Virus record (IMG/VR): IMGVR_UViG_3300045988_001437
Coordinates: 1-5,728 of that record
DNA: 5,728 nt
Strand: one strand, 5' to 3'
DNA from: a virus
A program made the position numbers and the translations under genes. Below, one piece after another: positions 1 to 5,728 of this stretch (positions are counted from its first letter, which is position 1; every line of letters starts with the position of its first letter). The notes below the pieces were generated by a model. That model had not been told where the DNA came from and did no database searches. It saw nothing but the letters and a program-made list of their open reading frames with translations.

Positions 1-30
1 CTTCGGTTTAACGGTCTTGCGGTATGCCAT
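1..30 (-). CDS. Partial duplicate copy of the N-terminus of the 39-aa basic peptide gene (first 10 codons, MAYRKTVKPK). It is the same gene as 5564..5683, seen again because of the circular overlap.
   Basis: The reverse complement of 1-30 reads ATGGCATACCGCAAGACCGTTAAACCGAAG. The RBS AAGGAGGTG lies at 36-44 on the minus strand. Confidence 0.5.
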   Translation of the reverse strand, partial: MAYRKTVKPK

Positions 31-52
31 GATACCACCTCCTTTTTCTCTC

Positions 53-61
53 ATTTTACCA
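53..61 (-). promoter_or_regulatory. Candidate promoter P3, an extended -10 element TGgTAAAAT. The T14 tract lies immediately upstream. It would drive the J-like, RHH71, 92-aa, VP3, VP1 and VP2 operon. A duplicate copy lies at 5706-5714.
   Basis: The minus strand reads ccTTGCG-T14-GG-TAAAAT-gagagaaaaAGGAGGTGgtatcATG. The TG dinucleotide is at the correct position for an extended -10. The -35 is poor (TTGCGT). Confidence 0.3.
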
Positions 62-74
62 AAAAAAAAAAAAA
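61..74. repeat. A14/T14 homopolymer tract. Duplicate copy at 5714-5727.
   Basis: Direct count of 14 consecutive A on the plus strand. Confidence 0.9.
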
Positions 75-102
75 CGCAAGGCTGATTTTCGTCAACCTCA
101 CG
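61..102 (-). terminator. Weak hairpin (7-bp stem with two G-U pairs and a 14-nt loop, at 75-102) followed by a U14 tract (61-74). A possible terminator for the acidic-ORF transcript.
   Basis: The minus-strand RNA reads CGUGAGG-N14-CCUUGCG followed by U14. The long loop makes this uncertain, but the U-run is very strong. Confidence 0.3.
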
Positions 103-117
103 TTTTTAATTTTATTA

Positions 118-282
118 TTATCGGTTTTCGTATTCTTTCAGTTTTTCACAGATTGCGTCTGTCCATTCATCGTCCATGTCGTATTCTTCTTGTATTTCGT
201 CTCTGTCTGTGCTTCTCCATCCGCCATCGTAAAGAGCTGCTGCACAATCTTCAATATTTTCTTCGTAGAAATTGTATTTCAT
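118..282 (-). CDS. 54-aa highly acidic small protein, MKYNFYEENIEDCAAALYDGGWRSTDRDEIQEEYDMDDEWTDAICEKLKEYENR. Function unknown. It forms an autonomous expression cassette.
   Basis: Hand-translated. ATG at 280-282 on the minus strand with the SD GAAAGGAGAA 8 nt upstream. It carries 18 Asp or Glu against 6 Lys or Arg. Its own consensus promoter lies upstream at 323-351, and a hairpin plus T14 lies downstream. Confidence 0.6.
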   Translation of the reverse strand: MKYNFYEENIEDCAAALYDGGWRSTDRDEIQEEYDMDDEWTDAICEKLKEYENR

Positions 283-312
283 GGTTTATTCTCCTTTCAG
301 ATTTAATCCTTT

Positions 313-345
313 CTACACCTTTATTATACACCTTTTATATACACT
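313..345 (-). repeat. Three tandem copies of a 13-bp unit GTGTATAWWAAAG, each carrying a GGTGTA or GTGTA core, overlapping the -10 and spacer of P1. An operator-like array.
   Basis: Plus-strand tacacc at 314-319 and 327-332, and tacac at 340-344, on an exact 13-bp register. Confidence 0.55.
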
Positions 346-351
346 TGTCAA
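323..351 (-). promoter_or_regulatory. Promoter P1, a consensus sigma70 promoter. On the minus strand it reads TTGACA, then 17 nt, then TATAAT.
   Basis: The reverse complement of 321-352 is cTTGACAagtgtatataaaaggtgTATAATaa. The -35 element lies at 346-351 and the -10 element at 323-328, both on the minus strand. It drives the acidic ORF, whose start lies about 40 nt downstream. Confidence 0.6.
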
Positions 352-406
352 GCACTTTTTTGCCTTTGCTAGGAAGCGCTATCAGACTCCCGCCCGCAGG
401 CGCTCC

Positions 407-437
407 AAATGATAAGAGACCGGCTTTCGCCGGTCTC
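407..437 (-). terminator. Intrinsic terminator candidate downstream of Rep. It is a 9-bp perfect stem GAGACCGGC / GCCGGUCUC with a GAAA tetraloop, followed by UUAUCAUUU.
   Basis: Plus-strand arms lie at 416-424 and 429-437 with the loop at 425-428. On the minus-strand RNA the loop is GAAA, a GNRA loop, and the U-rich tract corresponds to 407-415. The element lies about 64 nt after the Rep stop. Confidence 0.5.
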
Positions 438-500
438 AGACTATTGGCGCGCTTCCGTTAGACTTTGTGTCAGCTGCCACACTACTTTATTTAGCAAATT

Positions 501-1616
501 TTATACTTCTTCTCTTATGAGTTTTTTGAATTTTTCTTGATTTTTCTTGTCTTTTAGGTCATAATATTCTTGCATGTTCAAGCCGGTCTGTCTCAACTGA
601 GCAAACAGTGCATCATTTGCGATTCTTCGCCGTTCGCGTTTGATGGCTTTCAGTTCTTCAGATTCGGCTTTTACTATTGTGTCTTCTATCGTCTCGCTTT
701 CTGCTTCAGATAATGGTTTGCTGTTTGAGTGTTCCAGATCAAACAGTTTATCAAAATATCGTGGTGGTTTTGTTCTCCTTCCGTTTTTCAGCTGGATTTC
801 ATCTTTTGCATAGATTTCATCTTTGTGTTCCTCATAGTATTGCATTCCGATTGCAGGATTTTTGCTCATCATGCAGCGTTCTGGTAATACTCCGAGCTCT
901 TCATAATATTTTTTGGAGTCCTTGCCATAAATTTTTTTTGTCGTATATCTGGCAGTGTATGCCATGTTTTTCCATTCTGCTGGTCCTACTACTACATGAC
1001 CCATACCCCACAGTTTTGTGAGCCACTCGACATTGTAGTATCTGAATCCGTTTTTCTGCTTGTAGATTTTCAGTTCTTCCGGTTTTATTGGCAGATCGTA
1101 CACGATCGCATGATAATGCGGTCTGTGTGTCTGACTTCCGTATTCTCCTGCTTGGTAGTACATCAGTTTTCCGGTATTTCTTTCATGGTATTCTAACCAG
1201 CGTCTTAGGCGTTTCCAGAATTTCTGCATGTCCTCATAGTTTAACGTTAAGTTCTCTATGATTATTTCGCCGGTTCTTTTGTTAACTCCCAAACCTTGAT
1301 TGTAAGACCACGGTACGTGGTCCTCATCGTATGTAAGCGTTAAAAACCACGCATTATCGTGATATGGCAGTTCCATTTCCATTCTGTTTGCCCAGCTGCT
1401 TGCATTTTGCATCTTACAGCCGGCACAGTGACCGCATGGTAGCAGCTGAGCGTTTTCGTCTTTCAGCTTTCTCAATAGCTTTTTTTCTAGGCTTTCGTTC
1501 CAAAACGGTCCCTCAAAGTTCTGTTGGTTGTTGTGCTTCTTTCCTGCCAGTAGGTATTTTTTCAGGCTTGTTATTTCGCCGTCTGCGAACCTTACTAATG
1601 GCTGTGTGCACCCCAT
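501..1616 (-). CDS. VP4: Replication initiation protein VP4 (371 aa), an HUH rolling-circle endonuclease of the phiX174 gpA superfamily.
   Basis: Motif 1 is FLTLTYD. Motif 2 is RPHYHAIVYD, the HUH motif. Motif 3 is MAYTARYTTKKIYGK, a YxxRYxxK motif carrying the catalytic Tyr pair. The N-terminal region contains the Cys cluster CGHCAGC. Confidence 0.93.
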   Translation of the reverse strand: MGCTQPLVRFADGEITSLKKYLLAGKKHNNQQNFEGPFWNESLEKKLLRKLKDENAQLLPCGHCAGCKMQNASSWANRMEMELPYHDNAWFLTLTYDEDHVPWSYNQGLGVNKRTGEIIIENLTLNYEDMQKFWKRLRRWLEYHERNTGKLMYYQAGEYGSQTHRPHYHAIVYDLPIKPEELKIYKQKNGFRYYNVEWLTKLWGMGHVVVGPAEWKNMAYTARYTTKKIYGKDSKKYYEELGVLPERCMMSKNPAIGMQYYEEHKDEIYAKDEIQLKNGRRTKPPRYFDKLFDLEHSNSKPLSEAESETIEDTIVKAESEELKAIKRERRRIANDALFAQLRQTGLNMQEYYDLKDKKNQEKFKKLIREEV

Positions 1617-1639
1617 ATGGATGTTTCACCCCGTTCACC

Positions 1640-1685
1640 TCAGTGGGCCCCAATAACTCTTCTTGATGTTATTGGGGCCCACTGA
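1640..1685. other. Perfect 18-bp inverted repeat TCAGTGGGCCCCAATAAC / GTTATTGGGGCCCACTGA with a 10-nt loop, lying between the RHH54 stop and the Rep start.
   Basis: The arms at 1640-1657 and 1668-1685 are exact reverse complements and GC-rich at the stem base. On the minus strand the hairpin ends 23 nt upstream of the Rep ATG, next to GGTGAA-N3-GGTGAA direct repeats (plus-strand copies at 1625-1630 and 1634-1639). Confidence 0.75.
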
Positions 1686-1729
1686 CACAAAATTTCTCGT
1701 TTCCTTCGTTTTCCTCATGGATTTTTGTT

Positions 1730-1894
1730 TCAATCGTTGAACCCTAAGAGTTGAGCATACATGTCGATTGCGTCCCTGATTATGTCGCTGTCGATGTATT
1801 TTTCCCCTGTTTTTCTGCTTTCTATGTATCTCAGTTCGTCCAGCTGTTTCTGTGTGAGGTTAACGTTTACTCTTTTTGCTACTTGACTTTTCAT
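1730..1894 (-). CDS. 54-aa CopG-like ribbon-helix-helix protein, MKSQVAKRVNVNLTQKQLDELRYIESRKTGEKYIDSDIIRDAIDMYAQLLGFND.
   Basis: Hand-translated because it is below the ORF-track cutoff. ATG at 1892-1894 on the minus strand with the SD AAAAAGGAGT 7 nt upstream. The segment KRVNVNLTQKQLDELRYIESRKTGEKYIDSDIIRDAIDMY aligns residue for residue in pattern with CopG KRLTITLSESVLENLEKMAREMGLSKSAMISVALENY. Confidence 0.6.
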   Translation of the reverse strand: MKSQVAKRVNVNLTQKQLDELRYIESRKTGEKYIDSDIIRDAIDMYAQLLGFND

Positions 1895-1929
1895 GATTAT
1901 ACTCCTTTTTAGGTAAGGCGTTCGATTCG

Positions 1930-1948
1930 TACACCCATAATATACACC
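1930..1948 (-). repeat. Two GGTGTA direct repeats 13 bp apart, flanking and overlapping the P2 -10 element. They are homologous to the P1 array.
   Basis: Plus-strand tacacc at 1930-1935 and 1943-1948. Confidence 0.5.
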
Positions 1949-1967
1949 TTCTTTCTGTGTTTGTCAA
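1939..1967 (-). promoter_or_regulatory. Promoter P2. On the minus strand it reads TTGACA, then 17 nt, then TATATT, immediately after the VP2 stop. It drives the RHH54 and Rep operon.
   Basis: The reverse complement of 1937-1968 is gTTGACAaacacagaaagaaggtgTATATTat. The -35 element lies at 1962-1967 and the -10 element at 1939-1944. It shares AAGGTGTATAWT-N3-GGTGTA with P1. Confidence 0.55.
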
Positions 1968-2900
1968 CTATCTATTGTTTCTTGCTGTGTGTCCGGGATT
2001 CCATTCGATATCCCCGTGTGCTTCTCCGCTGATTCCCCGTTCGTTTCCTCGTGTCGTGCTCTGGCTCTGCTGGCTGCTCTGCTGGCTCAGGTTGCTGATC
2101 TGCTGTGCACTGCTTGACATGATCTGACTTGTGGCCTGCTGCATTTGCTCTGCGCTGTACCATTCGTTCGACTGTTTGGCGCTGTTGATCGCGGCCATGG
2201 CGTTCTGTAAAAACTGACTTGTATTGTTGCCGTAGTCGTACATGCTTTGCATGGTTGCCGTGTGTGCGCTTGGGATGGCTGCGCTCTGAGTGTGTGCAAA
2301 GCTCTGCATTCCGCTGCTTGCTGTGCCGCCTGAAGGTGTGCTTGCTCCGAACCCGTTGTATGCTGCTAACACCGGGTTTAAACCTGCTGCTTTCAGGTCT
2401 TTCACGCCGCGCTGGTATGCCGTGGAACTCATTCTTTCAGCCCATGCTCGCTGTGCTGCAGCTTCTGCGCTGTTGTACTTCTGTGCGCTTGTCTGGCTTG
2501 CGAGGTTCAGGCCGTTTGCTACGAGATTGCTGAGCATGTTCAGGCCGTTTGCATAGCTCCACATGCCTGTCTGCAGATTGTTTGCTGTGGTTGCCTGTCC
2601 TGCGTTGAATCCTGCTGCTGCTTCTGCGTTGTTTCCGGTAGGACTTCCCAGCGCTGTCTGTAGGATTCCGCCCAGTGAGCTTGTGTTGCCTGTCGTTACG
2701 CTTCCACCGCCTGCGGTTGTTGTTCCGCTCATGGTTCCGCTCTGGCTTCCGCTGCTCATGCTTGTGTTCATGCCCTGCTGTCCCATGGCGCTGCTCGTGC
2801 TTCCGCTTGTGTTGCTGAACAGGTTCTTTGCTTGTCCTGCGATCGACAGACCCGTTGAAACGATCGGCAGCCATGTCGCTAATCCTGATAAGAGGCCCAT
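1968..2900 (-). CDS. VP2: Minor capsid or DNA pilot protein VP2 (310 aa). It has a Gly/Ser/Thr/Ala-rich low-complexity half.
   Basis: ORF track entry. The conserved pilot-protein motif [18 protein letters not shown] is present. The RBS AAGGAGGT lies 6 nt upstream of the ATG and overlaps the VP1 stop. The gene sits immediately after VP1. Confidence 0.85.
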
Positions 2901-2911
2901 ATTGTACCTCC

Positions 2912-4525
2912 TTAGATTGTATCGATGCCTGGGATGCTATAGATAGGCATCGGTCTTGTCCATGCCTGACTGTAATAGAAGTTACAGATAAACTGGTGAG
3001 AGTTCGAGCTCTGTACCGCGAGAGTTCTGTCGATGTTTTCTGTTCCTTCTTTGATCCAGCTGCTGGACAGGGTAGGAAGTGCGTCGTATTTGTCCGCATA
3101 GTGCCATGCATCCAGCGTCTGCGCGTAGGTGCTGCGCATTTCGGACGTTACCATGTTTGTGCGGTACCTGTAGTCGGCCCAGGCTTCCTGATAGCCGAAT
3201 ACCTCTTCATCCTTTGCCTGTCCCTGTGCATAAATCTCCTGATTGAGCACTGCTTGTTCACCGAGGTTTGCTAACATTGGGTCATAGTAGGAAAAGCGAG
3301 TGCTGCGCGTCCAAAGTCTGCTCAGACCCTGCTGATAGCTGTGATCTACTCGGATAGCTGCCAGACCGAGGACAAAACCATGCTCGGTCGCGCTGTATGT
3401 GCACATATTCCGGCTTAATGTTGTCATGGAATAAGCACCGGTGTTGCCCTGCGGACTCGTGCTGTCCGTGCTGGATGTCTGAATTACCTGATTGACGTTG
3501 ATCGGCATTCTGTGCCCGCCGATGTACTCAGACCGGTCAAGACGTGCATCCGGACTTGTCACACCCCAAGCGCCTTTCAGGATTTCTTTGTATCGCGTGC
3601 CGGTTCTTGCATCACGTTCGAAGATGTGCTGCACTGCGATTGCCTGCCGCAAGTCGTTGATTGTCGCAGTTGTTGCGCTTCCGAGGTCTGCCATCAAATA
3701 GCCGCTTGTTGCTACTGCAGTTGTTGAGGCCGTTGTTGCTTTGACTGACTCTTCAATTTTTCCGTTCGGCTGGTTGTAGTAGAAGTTTTGCATTGCTCTG
3801 CTTTCGCTTCCGCTGTTCAGCATGTTTCCATCTATGTCACATACTCCTATTTTTGCATTTCCCAGCATTGGGATCGTTACTGGCTCTGTCGATTTCTGCA
3901 GAGACGGCAGGCAGCTGGTGAAATAGTCCTTGTACTTACAGACCTTCAGCGGCAGTCCGCCCGCTTCTGCGTCCGTCAGGTTCGTTCCCGTGTTTACGCC
4001 GGTCGTGGTCGTGTCGTCCATGCTTTGGGTTACAGGTTGCTGCAGGTTTTCGTCTCTGAACCATTCGTTATATACCTTGCAGTACGCTCTGAAAGGCAGA
4101 CTGTTCACCTTCAGGCCGCTCACGCCTGTCGGGATTCCGAAGTAATCCGCCAGAGTCCCAACGTTCCAGCCGCCTTCTGGTGCGGTCGTTACCGGAGTTG
4201 TGTATTCGGTCGGTTCTGCCCAGAAAGTGCTGTCGTTCTGGCCCATGAGGTTTTGAAAGTGCTTCCAGAGCAGTCTGCTCGGAATGAAGAAAAAGTAGAA
4301 GTCCATGTATGCATTGTCCATCACCGGATACAGCGGTGTGGCCATGCGAACCAGTGCGTTCAGGTTGATCTTGAAGGTATCTGCAGGCAATACCTCGTCC
4401 AAATAGATCGGTACAAGGTCGCCTTCGTTCATGGTCGTCAGCAGATTGAAATCTCGCTGGAATTTCGCTCTTCGGATTTCCGCATGAGGTACCTGTGCAT
4501 AGTGCTGCTCACTGTTTCTGTTCAT
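2912..4525 (-). CDS. VP1: Major capsid protein VP1 (537 aa), Microviridae F-protein family of the gokushovirus type.
   Basis: The N-terminus YAQVP...[13 protein letters not shown]...[17 protein letters not shown]...[12 protein letters not shown]...[12 protein letters not shown] matches the conserved gokushovirus VP1 signature FAQVP..R..F..TTF..G.L.PI..DEVLPGDTF..ARMATP..P.MDN..FFVP.RL.W. The SD GAGGT lies 9 nt upstream of the ATG. Confidence 0.95.
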
Positions 4526-5009
4526 CTGCTTTTACCTCTTTTTTTGTTGATTCTGCTGCAGCCTGGCTTTGTGCTGCAGCATTGTTTTTCGTTGAAATGC
4601 CCATTTTTTCGAGCCATTCGGCTTCTCCTGCGGTCGCTGCCCAGTTCTGGAAGTTCATGCCGAACTTCTGTCTGATCTCCAGCGGCAGCTGGTCGAACTT
4701 CTCGCGCTGCTCGTTCATGAGGTTCAGGTATTCGGTGTATGTCTTCGGCAGTTTCGTGGTGTCGATGTAGTAGCCCGGCGTTGTCAGTGCCGTTTCATCT
4801 CCTGCAGCGTATCGGCTGAGTATTGCCATCACATCGCACTGGTCGCGATAGCTCTGGATTTTCTCGTAGGTGTTGACCTCTCCGACTTTTTCAAGGTACG
4901 GATGCCCGTTAGCATCGTACCTTTCTTTGTATTCCGGCTCCATGATGTTCCCGCAGCAGTTGCAGCGGACTTCCGGTTTTTCTTTTTCGTATGGTTTAAA
5001 GATCTTCAT
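4509..5009 (-). CDS. VP3: Internal scaffolding protein VP3 (166 aa), gokushovirus-like.
   Basis: ORF track entry. Segments such as YRDQCDVMAILSRY and FDQLPLEIRQKFGMNF resemble Chlamydia-phage VP3 as I recall it (DECDINVLMKKY and ELPSNLRKKF). The gene sits immediately upstream of VP1 and overlaps its start by 17 nt. The C-terminal tail is acidic and low in complexity. Confidence 0.7.
   Translation of the reverse strand: MKIFKPYEKEKPEVRCNCCGNIMEPEYKERYDANGHPYLEKVGEVNTYEKIQSYRDQCDVMAILSRYAAGDETALTTPGYYIDTTKLPKTYTEYLNLMNEQREKFDQLPLEIRQKFGMNFQNWAATAGEAEWLEKMGISTKNNAAAQSQAAAESTKKEVKADEQKQ
4993..5006. repeat. 14-bp direct repeat GGTTTAAAGATCTT, copy 1. On the minus strand it is AAGATCTTTAAACC, which forms codons 2 to 6 of VP3.
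   Basis: Identical to 5057-5070. It is composed of the overlapping palindromes TTTAAA and AAGATCTT. Confidence 0.7.
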
Positions 5010-5056
5010 TTTCTCTTTTTCACCTTTTTTCTCTCGTTGTATCGTTCTTTTTTTAG

Positions 5057-5070
5057 GGTTTAAAGATCTT
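5057..5070. repeat. 14-bp direct repeat GGTTTAAAGATCTT, copy 2. It lies immediately 3' of the 92-aa ORF stop codon on the minus strand.
   Basis: Identical to 4993-5006. The two copies are 64 bp apart. Confidence 0.7.
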
Positions 5071-5348
5071 TATGCTTTTTTCCCTCGTGTCGGTTTCTTT
5101 ATCGGCTGCTGCATGGCTTTCTTTTCCTGTTCGATGTTGTAGATCAGTTCCGGCACCTGCGTTGTGATTTCGCCGGTTTCGGTGTTGTACATGCCCAGCT
5201 TGTAAATTCGCTTGTCATCACAGTCTTGCTTTTCGGTTTCTTCGGTCAGCCAGTGGAAAGTGCGCTGCGTGACTTTCGGATTGATCACCATGATGTTGCC
5301 GAAGGTACCGGCCAGTTCGTCTTTGATTGCGTACATTTCGAGAATCAT
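5070..5348 (-). CDS. 92-aa hypothetical protein with a basic C-terminal tail (KKPTRGKKA). It may be a VP5-like nonstructural protein.
   Basis: ORF track entry. ATG at 5346-5348 preceded by GGAAAGGAATAAACA. It lies in the slot between the regulatory genes and the scaffold gene. I recognise no family from the sequence alone. Confidence 0.55.
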   Translation of the reverse strand: MILEMYAIKDELAGTFGNIMVINPKVTQRTFHWLTEETEKQDCDDKRIYKLGMYNTETGEITTQVPELIYNIEQEKKAMQQPIKKPTRGKKA

Positions 5349-5351
5349 TGT

Positions 5352-5567
5352 TTATTCCTTTCCCAGTTCGTAGATCTGTTTTGTGGTGATGTTATCGAGT
5401 CCGTAGCGCAGCAGCGCTCTTGTCACTTTCGATCTCGGGATTTCCAGTGCCTGGCCGATGTCTTCGATTTCGTCCAGCATTCCGATTTCTATTCCGATCG
5501 CAAATCGGGTTTTCAGTTTTTTCGGATCCTTCTGGTTGAATCGTTCTCTGATGTGGCCGCTGCTCAT
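5352..5567 (-). CDS. 71-aa ribbon-helix-helix (CopG/Arc/MetJ-like) DNA-binding protein with a basic N-terminal tail.
   Basis: ORF track entry. The sequence TRFAIGIEIGMLDEIEDIGQALEIPRSKVTRALLRYGL fits a beta-strand, helix A, a P-R-S-K turn and helix B. Compare the CopG segment GLSKSAMISVALENY. The SD is GAGGGGG. The start overlaps the upstream gene stop as ATGA, which suggests translational coupling. Confidence 0.55.
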   Translation of the reverse strand: MSSGHIRERFNQKDPKKLKTRFAIGIEIGMLDEIEDIGQALEIPRSKVTRALLRYGLDNITTKQIYELGKE

Positions 5568-5683
5568 AGTCTGATTCCCCCTCTGCTCGGTTTCGGATTG
5601 ACGTTGATCTTTTTGGTTTTCTTTGCGGTGTTGGTGAAGATTTTCTTGTCGATCTTCGGTTTAACGGTCTTGCGGTATGCCAT
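5564..5683 (-). CDS. Small, highly basic 39-aa protein, MAYRKTVKPKIDKKIFTNTAKKTKKINVNPKPSRGGIRL. It resembles the Microviridae J or gokushovirus ORF8 DNA-binding and packaging peptide.
   Basis: ATG at 5681-5683 on the minus strand, preceded by a strong SD AAGGAGGTG with 6-nt spacing. 40 codons, 11 Lys and 3 Arg. The stop TGA overlaps the ATG of the next gene as ATGA. It is below the length cutoff of the supplied ORF track and I translated it by hand. Confidence 0.6.
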   Translation of the reverse strand: MAYRKTVKPKIDKKIFTNTAKKTKKINVNPKPSRGGIRL

Positions 5684-5728
5684 GATACCACCTCCTTTTT
5701 CTCTCATTTTACCAAAAAAAAAAAAAAC
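5654..5728. repeat. Second copy of the 75-nt terminal redundancy, matching 1-75.
   Basis: Exact identity to window positions 1-75. Confidence 0.9.

Follow-up and report, generated by a model that had tools for sequence, protein, structure and literature searches.

In the 5,728-nt window analyzed here (the whole stretch of viral DNA spanning positions 1 to 5,728 of the IMG/VR record IMGVR_UViG_3300045988_001437), a gokushovirus-like microvirus encodes a 54-aa protein, very probably of the ribbon-helix-helix (RHH) superfamily, between its VP2 gene and the gene for its HUH rolling-circle initiator, Rep (VP4). The gene lies behind a strong promoter, P2, marked by short phased repeats that recur at a second promoter, P1, and a perfect hairpin separates it from rep. 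The reality of the gene, its homology to RHH proteins at the level of the family, the synteny, the conservation of promoter and repeats and the covariation of the hairpin are all directly supported. The interpretation that we favor, to which we assign a probability of roughly 45%, is that P2 drives a bicistronic RHH-rep message, that the RHH protein binds the phased repeats at P2 and P1 as feedback, and that the hairpin is a separate DNA element.

The 54-aa open reading frame (ORF) is a genuine gene that a whole clade of mammalian-gut gokushoviruses has kept. It is preceded at 8 nt by an AAGGAG Shine-Dalgarno sequence, and a protein search with its sequence returned 26 homologs, nearly all on microvirus-sized contigs or shorter fragments; an all-against-profile search extended the family to 38 clusters at 50% identity. 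The ORF was present in 64 of 64 related loci, a set that includes 33 IMG/VR loci retrieved via the protein itself and 21 further loci picked solely by Rep similarity of at least 51%, every one of which carries it, and the order VP2-ORF-Rep was the same in every locus checked. Across approximately 68 related gokushovirus genomes, at 40-98% amino-acid identity, the frame, the start position and the Shine-Dalgarno sequence are kept. The distance from promoter to ORF start is fixed among relatives at 50-54 nt, and the median pairwise dN/dS is 0.41 with high synonymous divergence. The initial annotation of this DNA had proposed looking for such an ORF upstream of VP4 in other Microviridae; the related loci were uniformly positive, and eight of eight outgroup gokushoviruses (Rep 29-43% identical) contained neither the RHH gene nor the phased repeats described below. 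The ORF might still be dismissed as a chance reading frame within an intergenic region, given that it is unannotated in its GenBank relatives (KX513873, Human gut gokushovirus; MG945186; MG945569; and others) and that the window protein has no significant Pfam match. In-frame conservation, the dN/dS value and relatives that score up to the threshold of the Pfam RHH_1 model speak against this, and on account of the conservation data we regard the chance-frame explanation as refuted, its probability being close to nil.

The link of the protein to the RHH superfamily became visible solely when a profile of the wider family was used and its members were scanned one by one. The window protein alone gave no RHH match at E ≤ 1 in Pfam, where DUF7123 was returned at E = 0.06, and neither this protein nor a profile of its close homologs matched anything significantly in Pfam, PDB or NCBIfam. 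In PHROGs it matched phrog_876, annotated as a transcriptional repressor (E = 0.024); the sole return of Foldseek against the PDB was the RHH domain of PutA (E about 10), and SvtR of the archaeal virus SIRV1 was among its best fold matches. At the level of the family, 16 of 39 diverse members matched RHH_1 (PF01402), mostly weakly. The relative P0052 scored above the curated gathering cut-off of that model (22.4 versus 20.5 bits, profile positions 3-39 of 39), the family profile connects it to the window protein (E = 6e-6), other members reached 17-18 bits, and the remaining sub-threshold matches were all to RHH families (56B, CcdA, the ORF56 copy-control protein, NikR and aCcr1). AlphaFold predicts for the monomer an extended N-terminus followed by two helices, laid out as a strand (KRVNVNL), helix A (residues 15-27) and helix B (residues 35-49, SDIIRDAIDMYAQLL). 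The family alignment shows hardly any change in the basic/polar strand KR[IVF]N[IV]NLT, variation along helix A and a helix B capped as SDIIRDAI, which gives the strand-helix-helix of about 45 residues, with an alternating polar/basic N-terminal strand and an S/T/N-capped second helix, that characterizes RHH proteins. Proteins of this superfamily work as obligate dimers whose antiparallel beta-ribbon enters the major groove. The CopG-type RHH protein of the initial annotation, for which a Pfam search had been suggested as a check, is thus borne out for the family, through P0052 and the RHH_1 matches of relatives, but not by significant matches of the window protein itself.

A further trait varies within the family. 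Among 60 distinct RHH variants, 13 have a C-terminal acidic tail with LPF (DDDDLPF, EEEDLPF, DDNLPF), including those at L001 2010-2267, L007 1102-1368, L041 5273-5485 and L090 2360-2569; the window protein has no tail. In L090 two RHH paralogs stand in tandem, the second combining a divergent strand with the tail. The C-terminal tip DDDLPF of the Gram-positive SSB, a protein that binds single-stranded DNA, recruits host replication and repair proteins (PMC5531588), and in S. mutans the SSB tail is a ClpXP degron (PMC5143411).

The promoters carry the second line of evidence. A promoter scan ranked P1 as the best site in the window and P2 as the second best; they lie on the same strand and are the two sole consensus promoters (Table 1), P2 following directly after the VP2 stop codon. 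The near-consensus P2, with GGTGTA repeats around its -10 box, was found as initially annotated, and P1 has three RGTGTA copies at the same 13-nt phase. All five minus-strand copies of RGTGTA in the window fall within P1 and P2, and the phased pair RGTGTA-N7-RGTGTA occurs three times, always within these promoters, versus 0.02 expected, a count reached by none of 200 shuffles. A comparison of 39 distinct relatives showed next to no change in the P2 core (-35 to about +25), divergence in the upstream flank and the downstream ORF, and differences in the part of the spacer adjoining the -35 box; the 19-mer GGTGTATAWTATGRGTGTA (1930-1948) is exact in 63 of the 64 related loci. P1 follows the pattern TTGACA-AGTGTAT-nnnnn-AGGTGTATAATAAAGGTGTAG, in which the repeat copies are conserved, and the five bases between the first two copies differ among genomes, as does the downstream gene. 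In a distant relative, L352, the RHH promoter has three GGTGTA copies at 13-nt phase, kept despite a changed -10 box (TATAGT) and changed intervening bases, an argument for selection acting on the phased repeats as such. Nor is the arrangement generic, since of the 120 unrelated viral promoters listed as matches to TTGACA-N13-GGTGTATAAT, one has GTGTA 4-6 nt after the -10 box. These results show that the GTGTA repeats are non-random and specific to the clade.

A sequence scan detected no promoter-like or terminator-like site between the RHH gene and rep (1730-1616). The initial annotation was also right in placing the RHH gene directly upstream of rep, in the same orientation and after a strong promoter, which the relatives show to be conserved. 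We infer that both genes are co-transcribed from P2, and likewise the binding target, the repression and the function of the hairpin considered below. In the proposed circuit, P2 would produce a single RHH-rep message with RHH as its first gene, and RHH dimers would settle on the 13-nt-phased GTGTA repeats over the P2 -10 box and start site, where the accumulated protein would shut off its own synthesis and that of Rep. The same repeats would be bound at P1, which is expected to drive the remaining genes, so that the net effect would be negative feedback on both Rep dosage and total phage transcription. The hairpin would stand outside this transcriptional circuit as a separate DNA structure.

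Several observations weigh against such an operator. With both the repeats and the predicted DNA-reading strand unchanged among relatives, there is no variation to show co-evolution of protein and site, and phylogeny and host confound the co-occurrence of gene and repeats. A spacing of 13 bp departs from the helical repeat. The second repeat is also part of a stem-loop at the predicted 5' end of the transcript (Table 1), which could explain its conservation, and both the 71-aa protein encoded at 5352-5567 and Rep are other possible binders. Finally, the exact 19-mer occurs at about 19 independent sites without an RHH homolog, among them consensus promoters of housekeeping genes in Clostridia metagenome-assembled genomes (MAGs) and of tailed phages.

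The distribution of the 19-mer was analyzed in both bacterial and viral sequences. In 185,579 species genomes it gave 25 matches (chance estimate about 17), none near microvirus genes or an RHH homolog. Of the 53 matches in IMG/VR, 50 came from this microvirus clade and three from promoter-like sites on other (tailed-)phage contigs, two of which have an exact TTGACA at 17 nt before the -10 box. Many of the bacterial matches are real promoters, located before thioredoxin in nine Eubacteriales species (L068, L071, L077, L080, L082, L083, L086, L088 and L089), a class II aldolase gene (L074) and pta (L085), and several of these also have an exact TTGACA 17 nt upstream. Further promoter-like loci are L065, L069 and L081, and L098 and L102; overall, such sites were found in Clostridia, Eubacteriales and Oscillospiraceae MAGs and on tailed-phage contigs. 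As the 19-mer stands before bacterial and phage genes with no RHH homolog nearby, this sequence can sit in RHH-free promoters. This distribution of the 19-mer also hints at a Clostridia-class Firmicute as the host.

These matches bear on a different explanation, according to which the GTGTA copies are intrinsic features of the promoter and of the 5' untranslated region (a -10 context optimal for the host RNA polymerase together with a 5' stem-loop that stabilizes the mRNA) and not an operator, with some other target or role for the RHH protein. The RHH-free promoters just listed (thioredoxin, aldolase, pta and the three tailed-phage contigs) agree with it, as does one outgroup promoter that also reads TATAATATGAGT. 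The 5' stem-loop agrees as well: the second repeat pairs with a downstream ACACY among relatives, G-U pairs being tolerated, and 98% of cells are paired over 21 variants, with one covarying pair (AU 7, GC 7, GU 5); its backing is weak, as 4 of 500 shuffles reached the observed score. Against this explanation, a downstream GTGTA is rare in the similar promoters listed above, P1 lacks a downstream inverted partner, and in both P1 and L352 a third copy in phase sits within the spacer, a stretch for which RNA polymerase has no sequence requirement. We consider intrinsic promoter features an unlikely account of the repeats.

Direct repeats that overlap the promoter of a rep operon are typical of autoregulation by the initiator, and in geminiviruses the TATA box and the start site of rep enclose repeats to which Rep binds. 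The phased repeats might similarly be iterons through which Rep autoregulates, the RHH protein having a separate function, and their overlap with the rep-operon promoter and co-occurrence with this Rep clade are consistent with that. However, about 250 nt separate the repeats from the hairpin, copies are also found at P1, far from rep, and the locus encodes a protein dedicated to DNA binding whose reading strand is invariant; we rate Rep iterons as improbable. The other possible binder, the 71-aa protein, showed no relationship to the 54-aa family in a profile comparison.

The hairpin between the RHH gene and rep has arms that are 100% complementary (Table 1) and, folded as DNA, reaches -22.2 kcal/mol (z = -7.6). 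It is present in every relative, with stems that differ (GTGGGCCCCAATAAC, CCTAGCCCCAATAAC, GTGGGGGGAATAGAC, CTGGGGGGAAATGTA and others) and are always compensated. Over 21 distinct sequences, 14 of the 18 pairs changed on both sides with Watson-Crick compensation and 95.8% of cells were paired, compared to 31-50% in slid controls; a single wobble cell was found, and none of 500 shuffles reached the observed covariation score. The loop (RTCAAGARG) and the 5' flank TTGTGTCA (1690-1683, overlapping the stem base) are invariant, the flank holding a GTGT core like that of the promoter repeats. As there are almost no G-U/G-T intermediates, a DNA hairpin would fit better than an RNA one. The stem is not followed by a T-run on either strand (GGTGAACGGGG on the coding strand, CACAAAATTT on the other), the hairpin is absent from the terminator scan list, and Rfam gave no match; a terminator or known RNA was consequently rejected, and the element is neither the antisense-RNA terminator of pMV158 nor an attenuator. 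The hairpin that the initial annotation had placed between RHH and Rep is thus real, but it is not a regulatory RNA hairpin.

A hairpin with a conserved loop and a compensated stem just upstream of an HUH rep gene is the usual appearance of an origin in circular Rep-encoding single-stranded (CRESS) DNA viruses and in many rolling-circle plasmids. The present hairpin has the compensated stem, the invariant loop and the proximity to rep of an origin hairpin, and is probably a DNA-level origin element, either a recognition or nick site for Rep or an origin of the complementary strand. No paper on a mapped gokushovirus origin was found in the literature searched. The reverse complement of the loop (1658-1667, plus strand TCTTCTTGAT) contains TCTTGAT, which resembles the phiX174/pC194-type nick site CTTG/ATA; as a nick site it was rejected, since it occurs on the non-coding strand and the 7-mer shows no enrichment within the window (3 occurrences versus 2 expected). 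An element GAAACA...TCCAT lies upstream of the hairpin (1727-1742; GCAACAWWWATCCAT in relatives) and is partly repeated at the start of Rep (1617-1632; GAAACATCCATATG), and these two copies flanking the hairpin could be Rep-binding sites. Many relatives, with L019, L028, L031, L001 and L010 as examples, have an extra G+C-rich hairpin (e.g. GCCGGGGAGACCCGGC) without a T-run immediately past the RHH stop codon, in the first 30-50 nt; the window does not have it.

The position of this hairpin raises another explanation for the RHH protein, as a helper of the HUH Rep in its work at the origin, in the manner of the relaxosome RHH proteins TraY, NikA or TrwA; it would bind beside the hairpin, bend or melt the DNA and aid nicking or loading. 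Promoter binding would then be secondary, and the tailed variants would also recruit host proteins that bind SSB tails. Compatible with this are the adjacency of the RHH gene to an HUH nuclease gene with a conserved DNA hairpin in between, the GTGT core in the stem-base flank, and the acidic LPF tail of Gram-positive SSB type (PMC5531588) in the 13 tailed variants. On the other hand, a single GTGT at the hairpin contrasts with multiple phased copies at the promoters, the window protein is itself tail-less, and no covariation links protein and hairpin. An accessory role is unlikely, to about the same degree as the intrinsic-promoter explanation, and feedback through the repeats at P2 and P1 remains the reading that we prefer.

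Other features of the two promoter regions were noted. The place of the first gene behind P1 serves as a cargo slot with variable content: the window has there the gene of an acidic protein, also of 54 aa, with a YDGGWRS motif (118-282, minus strand), and in several relatives the slot holds different ORFs. Between this gene and the structural genes lies a 16-pair terminator-like hairpin with a 14-T run (61-107, minus strand; A14 on the plus strand), a possible leaky terminator by which the early-to-late transcript ratio would be set. The P2 core (1909-1938, minus strand) also allows another reading, in which GAAGGTG is a Shine-Dalgarno sequence and the ATG opens a 9-codon mini-ORF, MGVRIERLT, kept as M[GS]V.I... 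in many relatives and translatable solely from VP2 read-through transcripts. As a leader (ATG GGT GTA..., 1938-1909) it was rejected as dispensable, since L352 keeps the repeats without the ATG and P1 has no ATG, and the mini-ORF is probably incidental. A dif/XerCD-like site in P2 was also rejected: the 11-mer TGTATATTATG resembles E. coli dif, but its flanking arms mismatch and the site varies among relatives.

The genome itself is a 5653-nt circle: an exact 75-nt terminal repeat (1-75 and 5654-5728) indicates that it was assembled with an overlap. Its genes are typical of Gokushovirinae-like Microviridae and every one is on the minus strand (Table 1). Rep has the motifs HYHAIV and YTARY, the latter with two tyrosines in a YxxxY pair, and the hairpin after rep is the likely end of the P2 transcription unit. 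The nearest GenBank records are human and pig gut gokushoviruses, with 75-80% nucleotide identity across parts of the genome.

Table 1. Coordinates of genes and sequence elements in the window.
Feature	Position	Strand	Details
Promoter P2	1939-1967	-	-35 TTGACA 1967-1962, 17-nt spacer, -10 TATATT 1944-1939; 11/12 consensus
Candidate operator at P2, GGTGTA x2	1948-1943, 1935-1930	-	Flank the -10 box; 13 nt start to start
Promoter P1	314-351 including repeats	-	12/12 site 351-323, TTGACA-17-TATAAT
Candidate operator at P1, RGTGTA x3	345-340, 332-327, 319-314	-	13 nt apart
Stem-loop at predicted transcript 5' end	1917-1935	-	GGTGT 1935-1931 pairs with ACGCC 1921-1917
54-aa RHH protein gene	1730-1894	-	Between VP2 and Rep
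Perfect hairpin	Arms 1685-1668, 1657-1640	-	18 bp, 10-nt loop ATCAAGAAGA
Rep/VP4, HUH rolling-circle initiator	501-1616	-	Pfam REP_ORF2-G2P (PF23343) 4e-16; phrog_942 1.6e-98
Terminator-like hairpin after rep	416-437	-	9 pairs, 7 G-C; weak T-tail
VP2-like 310-aa ORF	1968-2900	-	Stop codon 1970-1968
Major capsid VP1	2912-4525	-	Phage_F, 1e-163
Scaffold VP3	4509-5009	-	Chlamy_scaf
ORF5/VP5	5070-5348	-	
71-aa protein	5352-5567		Second candidate DNA-binding protein

From autoregulated Rep expression the initial annotation had gone on to suggest a temperate or episomal lifestyle, and this found no support. The 19-mer scan of the 185,579 species genomes revealed no prophage copy, no integrase or dif-like site turned up, and the relatives, all on contigs of 4-7 kb, are circles of 5-6 kb. 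A gokushovirus of E. coli persists as a circular episome and confers superinfection immunity, with no repressor mentioned (PMC7062461), which makes a carrier state worth testing. The RHH protein might be the master switch of such a non-integrated state, occupying the P1 and P2 repeats and silencing Rep and the structural genes, a possibility that we regard as doubtful. If true, the result would be a quiet gokushovirus episome that confers immunity, the DDLPF-tailed variants (SSB-like or ClpXP-degron-like) would make the switch responsive to host proteolysis or replication machinery, and the persistence and immunity described for the E. coli gokushovirus (PMC7062461) would be explained.

Microviruses are treated as minimal, constitutively lytic phages without transcription factors, and a conserved DNA-binding regulator would change models of how their expression and replication are controlled. 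The initial remark that Microviridae are not known for transcriptional repressors agrees with the literature searched, incomplete in coverage, in which nothing relevant on an RHH, CopG or repressor-type regulator in Microviridae or gokushoviruses was found. The RHH protein is a candidate for the unexplained gokushovirus carrier state and immunity, and the 54-aa protein and two fragments of about 50 bp would suffice for a first test. The analysis also flags an unannotated gene in public records, including that of Human gut gokushovirus KX513873, and the probable origin hairpin would be of use for synthetic microvirus vectors.

Comparison with known systems begins with the copG-repB module of the pMV158 family of rolling-circle plasmids, to which the initial annotation had likened the locus. 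As in those plasmids, a small RHH gene is located directly upstream of a co-oriented HUH initiator gene behind one promoter, and an RHH autorepressor that limits initiator dosage is the likely common logic. The pMV158 module has RepB as initiator, a 13-bp pseudosymmetric operator at the -35 box, an antisense RNA II with a terminator, and an origin upstream of the promoter. In contrast, Rep here is of the two-tyrosine Microviridae VP4 type (PF23343) and not a RepB (Rep_2), the candidate operator consists of phased direct repeats over -10/+1 with no palindrome at -35, the RHH-rep intergenic region has no antisense RNA II or terminator, and the origin-like hairpin lies between the two genes instead of upstream of the promoter. 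A promoter scan of 1117-1876 found no plus-strand promoter-like site for an antisense RNA. The likeness to copG-repB consequently holds for the order promoter-RHH-HUH rep and fails for Rep family, operator type and position, antisense RNA, terminator and origin position, and the module is not a member of the pMV158 system.

Geminivirus and CRESS-DNA origins share with this locus a conserved-loop hairpin directly upstream of the HUH rep and short direct repeats over the rep promoter, but there Rep binds iterons that abut the hairpin and no separate RHH protein takes part. Arc and Mnt of phage P22 and SvtR of SIRV1 are likewise small viral RHH repressors acting at operators that overlap promoters; they come from viruses with double-stranded DNA, their operators are palindromic, and none is linked to the gene of a replication initiator. 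With TraY, NikA and TrwA, accessory proteins paired with HUH relaxases, the locus has in common an RHH gene beside an HUH nuclease gene and structured nick-region DNA nearby, and TrwA has two roles, as a repressor of its own operon and as an aid to the nuclease. These proteins differ in serving conjugative transfer from sites directly beside nic, whereas one GTGT stands at the hairpin here. Finally, the omega repressor of pSM19035 (inc18), an RHH protein, binds arrays of short repeats, in direct and inverted orientation, over several promoters of one replicon and is a global regulator, copy control included. Its sites are contiguous 7-bp heptads, as opposed to 2-3 copies per promoter spaced 13 bp apart that are candidate sites only. 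Judged by these analogies, the regulatory logic proposed for this gokushovirus is closer to that of omega or TrwA than to that of pMV158 copG-repB.

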